Shown: positions 14,909-15,187 of the stretch, in pieces
Layout of the letters: the number at the start of each line of letters is the position of its first letter
How positions within the stretch are numbered: position 1 is the first letter of the stretch
Assembly (NCBI GenBank): GCA_963709585.1
Contig: CAVPXI010000023.1
Coordinates: 49,045-113,044 of the forward strand
From: Candidatus Dormiibacterota bacterium
GTDB lineage: Bacteria > Chloroflexota > Dormibacteria > Aeolococcales > Aeolococcaceae
Length of the DNA stretch: 64,000 nucleotides
Reading direction: 5' to 3'
Notes under the pieces: generated by a model
What the model was told of the DNA's origin: nothing
Seen by the model: only the letters and a program-made list of their open reading frames with translations
Database searches by the model: none
Position numbers and translations under genes: made by a program

Positions 14909-15167
14909 AGGAAAGTAGCTGCCTTAGTAAAATCTGGCTATATGCTGGAAAACCCGAGAATCCCGCGCTACTGCGTTCGCGCAGTGACAATGCGACGGGT
15001 GCGGACAATCAGCAGGAAAGGCTGCTCAGCGTGAGCAGAATCCTCAGAGACCATACGCCGGACGGTTCACGCGAACTGAAGATATGGTCCCATCTGCATG
15101 GCGACATGCAGGGGAGCGCACCGCTAGTGCTCTCCCGCTCGAGCAACGATGTTTGGGTAAGAGATTA
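14909..15167 (+). mobile_element. Group I intron at 23S L1931, no ORF, apparent terminal A
   Basis: Exon join CCTAAGGT|AGCGAAATT; guide GCT-GCCTTAG pairs with CTAAGGT and AGC; R TCAGAGACCAT and S AAGATATGGTCC with a compensatory change. Confidence 0.9.
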
Positions 15168-15187
15168 AGCGAAATTCCTTGTCGGGT

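Follow-up and report, generated by a model that had tools for sequence, protein, structure and literature searches.

A group I intron at site L1931 of a Dormibacteria 23S rRNA gene apparently ends in A, as do related introns in many bacterial phyla

We analysed a 64,000-nt stretch of Candidatus Dormibacteraeota DNA (the window, by which we mean that whole stretch) and found that the insert at 14909-15167 is probably a functional group I ribozyme intron without an ORF, placed after U1931 of the single 23S rRNA gene and carrying an A at the omega position, its last base. In group I introns, a terminal G is regarded as a nearly invariable component of catalysis, since exon ligation requires this base to move into the guanosine pocket. 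The insert had every defining feature of a group I intron that we tested except this terminal G. Sequence comparison supports the existence of a natural L1931 group I intron that combines an omega A with a canonical G-binding pair, and the intron of the window is apparently one member of a widespread and undescribed omega-A class.

The genome, a metagenome-assembled genome (MAG) of a soil bacterium, consists of 24 contigs that add up to 3.5 Mb, and its G+C content is 66%. Only one rrn operon is present, part of which is masked in the genome sequence, and no second rrn copy that could act as an intron-less or alternative allele was found in the 3.5 Mb. Since there is a single operon, its 23S gene must be functional. 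An Rfam scan identified a complete bacterial 23S rRNA at 12147-16387, which extends over 4241 nt against the 2925 positions of the model. The intron borders were read against the universally conserved H69-H71 string, and in this manner three insertions were recognized within 34 nt of rRNA (Table 1). The group I intron match to RF00028 covers 14892-15111 (66.7 bits against a gathering score of 50, E = 1e-14), and a focused Rfam scan reported an extra, weaker group I match at 15149-15431. The sequence of the L1931 locus is ...ACGGUCCUAAGGU(14908)/AGGAAAGUAGCUGCCUUAG...GGGUAAGAGAUUA(15167)/AGCGAAAUUCC, where the slash, here and below, marks an intron border. The insertion is between U1931 and A1932, with the canonical exon flanks GGU/ and /AGCGAAAUU, and the borders have a sliding ambiguity of +1 or +2.

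Within 14909-15167 no ORF of at least 90 aa was found on the + strand, and the single-motif LAGLIDADG homing endonuclease gene that is usual at L1931 is missing; many L1931 relatives of 700-800 nt presumably carry this gene. The core of the L1931 intron is paralogous to the window's own L1917 intron (94.9% over 39 nt, 78.9% over 71 nt). We also observed that the P9.2 loop of the L1931 intron, at 15140-15151 (GAGCAACGAUG), is a near-repeat of the 3' end of the L1917 intron, at 14881-14894 (GAGCAACAACGAUG/), which is consistent with the two introns being paralogues. The L1917, L1931, and L1951 introns are spaced by exons of 14 nt and 20 nt only. This is tighter than in Coxiella, where exon skipping has been reported for a 34-nt exon between tandem introns (PMC10136302).

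Table 1. Features of the tandem 23S rRNA introns and of the L1931 ribozyme, in positions of the window.
Feature	Position	Strand	Details
L1917 group I intron	14176-14894	+	719 nt; ends ...CGAUG/AACGG, last base G14894
LAGLIDADG_1 ORF inside the L1917 intron	14235-14801	+	
14-nt 23S exon piece, spacer between L1917 and L1931	14895-14908	+	E. coli 1918-1931; matches canonical AACGGUCCUAAGGU
L1931 group I intron	14909-15167	+	259 nt, no ORF, last base A15167; RF00028, 66.7 bits
P1 hairpin	14902-14927	+	exon/intron strand 14902-14910 with internal guide 14919-14927; U14908·G14921 at the 5' splice site
P10 guide GCU	14918-14920	+	A15168-U14920, G15169-C14919, C15170-G14918; read from the sequence
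P7 5' strand	15047-15054	+	G-(A bulge)-GACCAU; G15049 is the guanine of the G-binding pair; partner 15084-15090
P7 3' strand, AUGGUCC	15084-15090	+	
J7/9 bases j1-j3 (C, A, U)	15091-15093	+	A15092 pairs with U15166 (P9.0)
P9 hairpin	15094-15111	+	7 bp, GCGA tetraloop; 100% of cells paired in 19 sequences
P9.1 hairpin (GGGAG...CUCCC)	15112-15136	+	RNAalifold columns 293-297/323-327, compensatory changes
P9.2 hairpin (GCUCGAGC...GUUUGGGU)	15137-15158	+	RNAalifold columns 328-335/350-356, many compensatory changes
Single-stranded 3' tail AAGAGAUUA	15159-15167	+	A15167 is the omega position
20-nt 23S exon piece, spacer between L1931 and L1951	15168-15187	+	23S 1932-1951; matches canonical AGCGAAAUUCCUUGUCGGGU
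L1951 group I intron	15188-15439	+	last base G, ...CAUG/AAGUUCC

In an alignment of 19 homologues, the named helices were 98.9% paired, compared with 24-43% when the partners were slid against each other. The RNAalifold consensus recovered P1, P3, P4, P5, P6, P8, P9, P9.1, and P9.2. Of its 74 pairs, 35 showed compensatory changes, and three of the five pairs of P3 had double changes. The pairing and the compensatory changes indicate that the L1931 intron is a ribozyme under structural selection. Both the loop and the stem of P9.2 differ among the species of the genus.

The first-pass annotation of this DNA had used P1 to set the 5' splice site after U1931, and this agrees with the U14908·G14921 wobble, which was kept in all 19 aligned relatives (98.8% of the P1 cells were paired). 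It had also used P10 to place the 3' exon at 15168, a position confirmed by the pairing of AGC at 15168-15170 with the GCU guide; among the 12 other species of the genus, 5 have A in place of the guide base G14918 and keep a P10 of 2 bp. From the P1 wobble, P10, and the canonical exon sequence, the last intron base would be A15167, and the same call in the first-pass annotation is borne out by the sequence and by the comparison of relatives. The P7 G-binding pair, described there as canonical, was indeed G-C in 19 of 19 aligned sequences. In the window, G15047 pairs with C15090, A15048 is bulged, G15049 and C15089 form the guanosine-binding pair, and the helix continues to U15054-A15084. The P7 motif CAGAG(A/G)C...(A/G)GUCC occurs in A-ending as well as in G-ending introns, and no compensating change of the pocket pair from G-C to A-U was found in the 19 aligned relatives or in either of the terminal-base classes. 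The intron of the window therefore has the two attributes that define the omega-A state, a terminal A and an otherwise canonical G-binding pair.

When 60 relatives were searched, the intron turned up in 12 more species of the genus, with identities of 85-95%. At the junction, U-A/AGCG is constant in all 13 species, in spite of substitutions and indels in the adjacent upstream part of the tail. The tails that follow P9.2 differ in length and sequence (AAGAGAUUA, AAGGCUUA, AAGGCCUA, UAAGAAGGAAUA, CAAGGAUUUA, and others), and all of them end in U-A before AGCGAAAUU. A homologue from a sister genus of the same family (L146) is 263 nt long and has the same P9-P9.1-P9.2 architecture, and it ends in G: its tail is AAGAGUUG/AGCG, against AAGAGAUUA/AGCG in the window, and its end is ...GUAAGAGUUG/AGCG. 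A clean terminal substitution was also seen among CPR introns, with ...GGAAACGAAA/ versus ...GGAAACGAAG/.

Guanines located earlier in the tail were considered as the true omega, namely G15151, which is homologous to the L1917 end ...CGAUG, G15161, and G15163. These would leave 4-16 extra bases in the rRNA, and they were rejected because the extra bases fall in universally conserved rRNA and because the tail bases vary between species. The tail sequence UAAGG could also be read as a repeat of the 5' exon, as in an L1925-type intron; this was ruled out on the same grounds, extra bases in conserved rRNA and a variable tail.

If a G had been dropped during assembly or basecalling, the true sequence would be ...UUAG/AGCG, that is GAUUAGAGCG instead of GAUUAAGCG. 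The first-pass annotation had raised this caveat, and the genome is a long-read MAG from a project whose assemblies can carry indels. The caveat is refuted by the recurrence of the junction: 13 species of the genus share the terminal U-A in differing local contexts, and A/AGCG occurs in at least 120 species, including a short-read Coxiella endosymbiont NODE contig and RIFCSP and 14_0929 scaffolds. Moreover, a terminal G is still present in the other two 23S introns of this assembly (L1917 and L1951), and the covariation of omega-1 with j2 fits the sequence as it is, in the same register as in the G-ending L1917 paralogues. On this comparative evidence we regard the artefact as effectively excluded. 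A different way of restoring a terminal G is to move the borders. The structure read in the first-pass annotation holds, but the annotation overlooked that both the L1931 intron and its 3' exon begin with AG, and the borders may slide to 14910-15168, with A as the last base, or to 14911-15169, with G as the last base and G-C instead of U·G at the 5' site. With the +2 borders the intron would follow G1933 and would end in a normal omega G, G15169, and the ligated rRNA would be identical because intron and 3' exon both begin with AG. The AG repeat is visible in the sequence, P1 can be extended through A14909-U14920 and G14910-C14919, and AG starts are commoner in A-ending introns (38 of 86, or 44%) than in G-ending ones (23 of 121, or 19%); we count this repeat and this enrichment against A15167 as the last base. 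However, P1 extension and P10 normally rely on a common set of guide bases, and this alone accounts for the AG repeat. Sliding by two would also put the 5' site after the G of a G-C pair and not after the U·G kept in 19 of 19 relatives, and the P9.0 pair beside the terminal A, present in 80 of 85 introns, would be 2 nt out of register. The G-ending L146 intron, which has the same guide sequence, starts with GG and is unambiguously at L1931. Finally, 48 of the 86 A-ending inserts (56%) have no AG start and are unable to slide, so that a border shift to a terminal G is impossible there. We consider the +2 borders very unlikely.

It might also be that the terminal A is the mark of a decaying ribozyme that does not self-splice accurately at its 3' end, the intron being either retained in the rRNA or removed or trimmed by host factors. 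Loss of the omega G is expected to cripple the second step. In addition, the title of a work on Simkania, as cited in PMC11270868, refers to an 'unspliced group I intron in 23S rRNA', and the Simkania intron is at the same site (PMC1995217). A retained intron fits poorly with a working ribosome, given that three introns lie within 34 nt of H69-H71 in the only rrl copy. Conservation and covariation are also seen in the ribozyme core and in the elements that serve ligation only (P10 and the omega-1 pair), and the A state persists across the genus and across many phyla. Altogether, we find inaccurate or absent self-splicing an unlikely explanation, and the reading with A15167 as the omega of a functional intron is the one we follow here.

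One genome per GTDB species was scanned for AAGCGAAATTCCTTGTCGGG. At least 120 of these representatives, spread over many phyla, had the A/AGCG junction; the count is a lower bound. Among the matches listed, the A-ending inserts are 250-1100 nt long and have guide and core sequences in common. The phyla named among these listed matches are Actinomycetota, Acidobacteriota, Pseudomonadota, Patescibacteria, and others, and the taxa include Acidimicrobiia, Thermoleophilia/Solirubrobacterales, Acidobacteriota, Gammaproteobacteria, Gemmatimonadota, Spirochaetia, Planctomycetota, and many CPR lineages. The matches listed also include the Coxiella endosymbiont of a tick (Gammaproteobacteria) and Illumina/short-read assemblies (SPAdes/MEGAHIT-style). 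The first-pass annotation had suggested a possible second natural case of an intron ending in A. The proposal of a natural omega A at L1931 stands, but with the A-ending state in at least 120 species the intron of the window is not a lone second case.

The frequency of the A-ending state was estimated from two samples. In a phylum sample of 401 genomes, searched with a pattern that accepts any non-U base before A1932, 19 introns ended in G and 3 in A (19 and 2, respectively, when the query genomes were removed). An order sample of Acidimicrobiia, with the query genomes excluded, gave 3 A and 6 G. Taking the two unbiased samples together, 5 of 30 L1931 introns are A-ending. We also built a tree from 181 core columns, leaving out the tail. 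It comprises 85 A-ending introns and 120 G-ending ones, the latter taken from a metagenome scan. The terminal base changes at least 29 times on this tree, compared with 65 for shuffled labels (minimum 56). In the lineage as a whole, parsimony would give about 24-29 switches between G and A, 5 of them well supported. The A-ending introns are concentrated in a long-tail subfamily, where they are interleaved with G-ending ones.

For the analysis of P9.0, j1-j3 were defined as the three bases after the P7 3' strand (...GUCC). Short-tail G-ending L1931 introns have j1:omega-1 in 71 of 75 and j2:omega-2 in 72 of 75. This classical register was rejected for the A-ending introns, where it accounts for only 38 of 85 (j1:omega-1) and 48 of 85 (j2:omega-2), and j2:omega-1 fits instead. 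The j2:omega-1 pair is Watson-Crick in 80 of the 85 A-ending introns (38 G-C, 31 A-U, 9 U-A, and 2 C-G), against 32 on average, and never more than 46, in 2000 shuffles. The pair of the window, A15092-U15166, is A-U in all 13 members of the genus although omega-2 varies. G-ending L1917 paralogues use the j2:omega-1 register as well, with covariation (GAU...GAUG/, GCU...AGG/, GGA...ACG/). Judging from this covariation, the register is a property of the whole long-tail family, beyond its A-ending members. It follows from the match in register that the terminal A has the same position with respect to P9.0 and P10 as the terminal G.

Within the long-tail subfamily, 73 of 76 A-ending introns have a Watson-Crick omega-1 pair, versus 20 of 42 G-ending ones. 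Independent contrasts on supported branches amount to only 5 pairs, with about 4 in the expected direction and 0 in the opposite one (p about 0.125), and the link between omega A and the omega-1 pair is suggestive but not proven. Another observation on the tail concerns an N-N-A-A-(G/C) motif right after P9.2 (15159-15161 in the window; also in the tails of L021-L282), which is common to the L1931 and L1917 long-tail introns. In both groups this conserved motif is followed by 4-7 nt and then by omega. We looked for a pairing partner of the G/C of the A-A-(G/C) part of the motif and found none.

In the mechanism that we propose, exogenous guanosine would bind the unchanged G15049-C15089 pocket and attack after U14908, with the U14908·G14921 wobble in P1 selecting the bond for this first step. 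In the second step, the 3' splice site would be positioned mainly by helices and not by base-specific docking of omega. The holding helices would be P10 (AGC 15168-15170 with GCU 14918-14920) and the one-pair P9.0 (A15092-U15166), which adjoins A15167, and A15167 itself may occupy the pocket weakly or in a manner that is not base-specific. Splicing at exactly these bonds would produce a ligated junction reading CCUAAGGU-AGCGAAAUU. For the L1931 long-tail lineage as a whole, and rarely for L1917, we lean somewhat towards exon ligation without an omega G, with repeated switches between G and A, accuracy provided, in the A-ending members, through the near-obligatory Watson-Crick omega-1:j2 pair together with P10, and a pocket that stays G-C for step 1. 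Against omega-A splicing speaks the Tetrahymena ribozyme, in which a terminal G to A change strongly impairs exon ligation.

The Tetrahymena L1925 intron is like the intron of the window in its ribozyme class, in its two-step mechanism, and in the architecture of P7, with a pair, a bulged A, and a G-C pocket pair. A Tetrahymena intron without its terminal G requires the pocket pair to be changed in compensation, whereas in the window the pocket pair stays G-C. A closer precedent comes from Coxiella burnetii, for which Raghavan et al. reportedly described, according to the title, an intron that 'lacks the canonical omegaG' (Cbu.L1917). This intron is said to have A as its terminal nucleotide and to self-splice, and the helix-held 3' splice site proposed here would fit such a precedent. 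Both are bacterial 23S group I introns of the H69-H71 region with a non-G end, and both are found in tandem with other introns and with a very short exon in between. Compared by description, the intron of the window differs in being at L1931 and not at L1917. In addition, Cbu.L1917 is described as a single exception, and is the one natural exception cited in those portions of the literature available to us, whereas the A state of the window is common to the genus and to at least 120 species.

L1931 introns are known from Thermotoga spp., Simkania negevensis, Synechococcus C1/C9, and green-algal and diatom organelles (PMC1995217, PMC11019260). The intron of the window resembles them in its site after U1931, in the design of P1 and the guide (GCC UUAG), and in its core, and the G-ending L1931 introns that we collected align and cluster with the A-ending ones. 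The L1931 introns described are 650-700 nt long and have a LAGLIDADG gene (PMC1995217), unlike the copy in the window, which has 259 nt, no ORF, a long P9.1-P9.2 tail, and an A end. A missing terminal G at L1931 is not mentioned in PMC1995217 or PMC11019260, and a search of the literature accessible to us found no published description of A-ending L1931 introns.

The exception to the terminal G is common in one intron family, being found in at least 120 species and in about one sixth to one third of the L1931 introns. Omega A has apparently arisen there repeatedly, accompanied by a specific neighbouring base pair. If ligation does proceed without an omega G, this represents a phylogenetically replicated natural experiment in which the second step can do without base-specific docking of omega. 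Natural G/A pairs exist in near-identical backgrounds, such as the intron of the window and L146, or the CPR introns with ...CGAAA and ...CGAAG, and would let RNA biochemists ask how the 3' splice site is chosen without an omega G. Annotation tools that seek a terminal G would set the borders of these introns wrongly when applied to the rRNA genes of soil Actinomycetota, Dormibacteria, Acidobacteriota, and CPR bacteria.

Some further observations were made on related introns. At L1917, A-ending introns were found in only 2 of 40 collected loci, both on metagenome contigs (L165 and L230, ...GUAACGACCUA/AACGG), and the other 38 end in G. This looks like the Coxiella-type state at L1917, and the L1917 copy of L165 has the omega-1:j2 pair. 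In the Coxiella endosymbiont of Ornithodoros amblus (L043), the L1931 intron (287 nt) ends in A and the L1917 intron (670 nt) in G, an arrangement that is the reverse of the one published for C. burnetii. A 1119-nt contig binned as Nanoarchaeota (L099) contains a bacterial-type 23S fragment with an A-ending L1931 intron, and is probably a binning error rather than a case of an archaeal group I intron. In the window, the 16S rRNA gene also holds a group I intron of 782 nt, at 10628-11409, after ...GAAGUCGU. This intron encodes a 198-aa ORF (10667-11263) that matches LAGLIDADG_3, and it ends in ...CGUG/AACAAGG; its terminal G is normal, and its P9.0 is of the classical type, with 3 bp (ACG/CGU).
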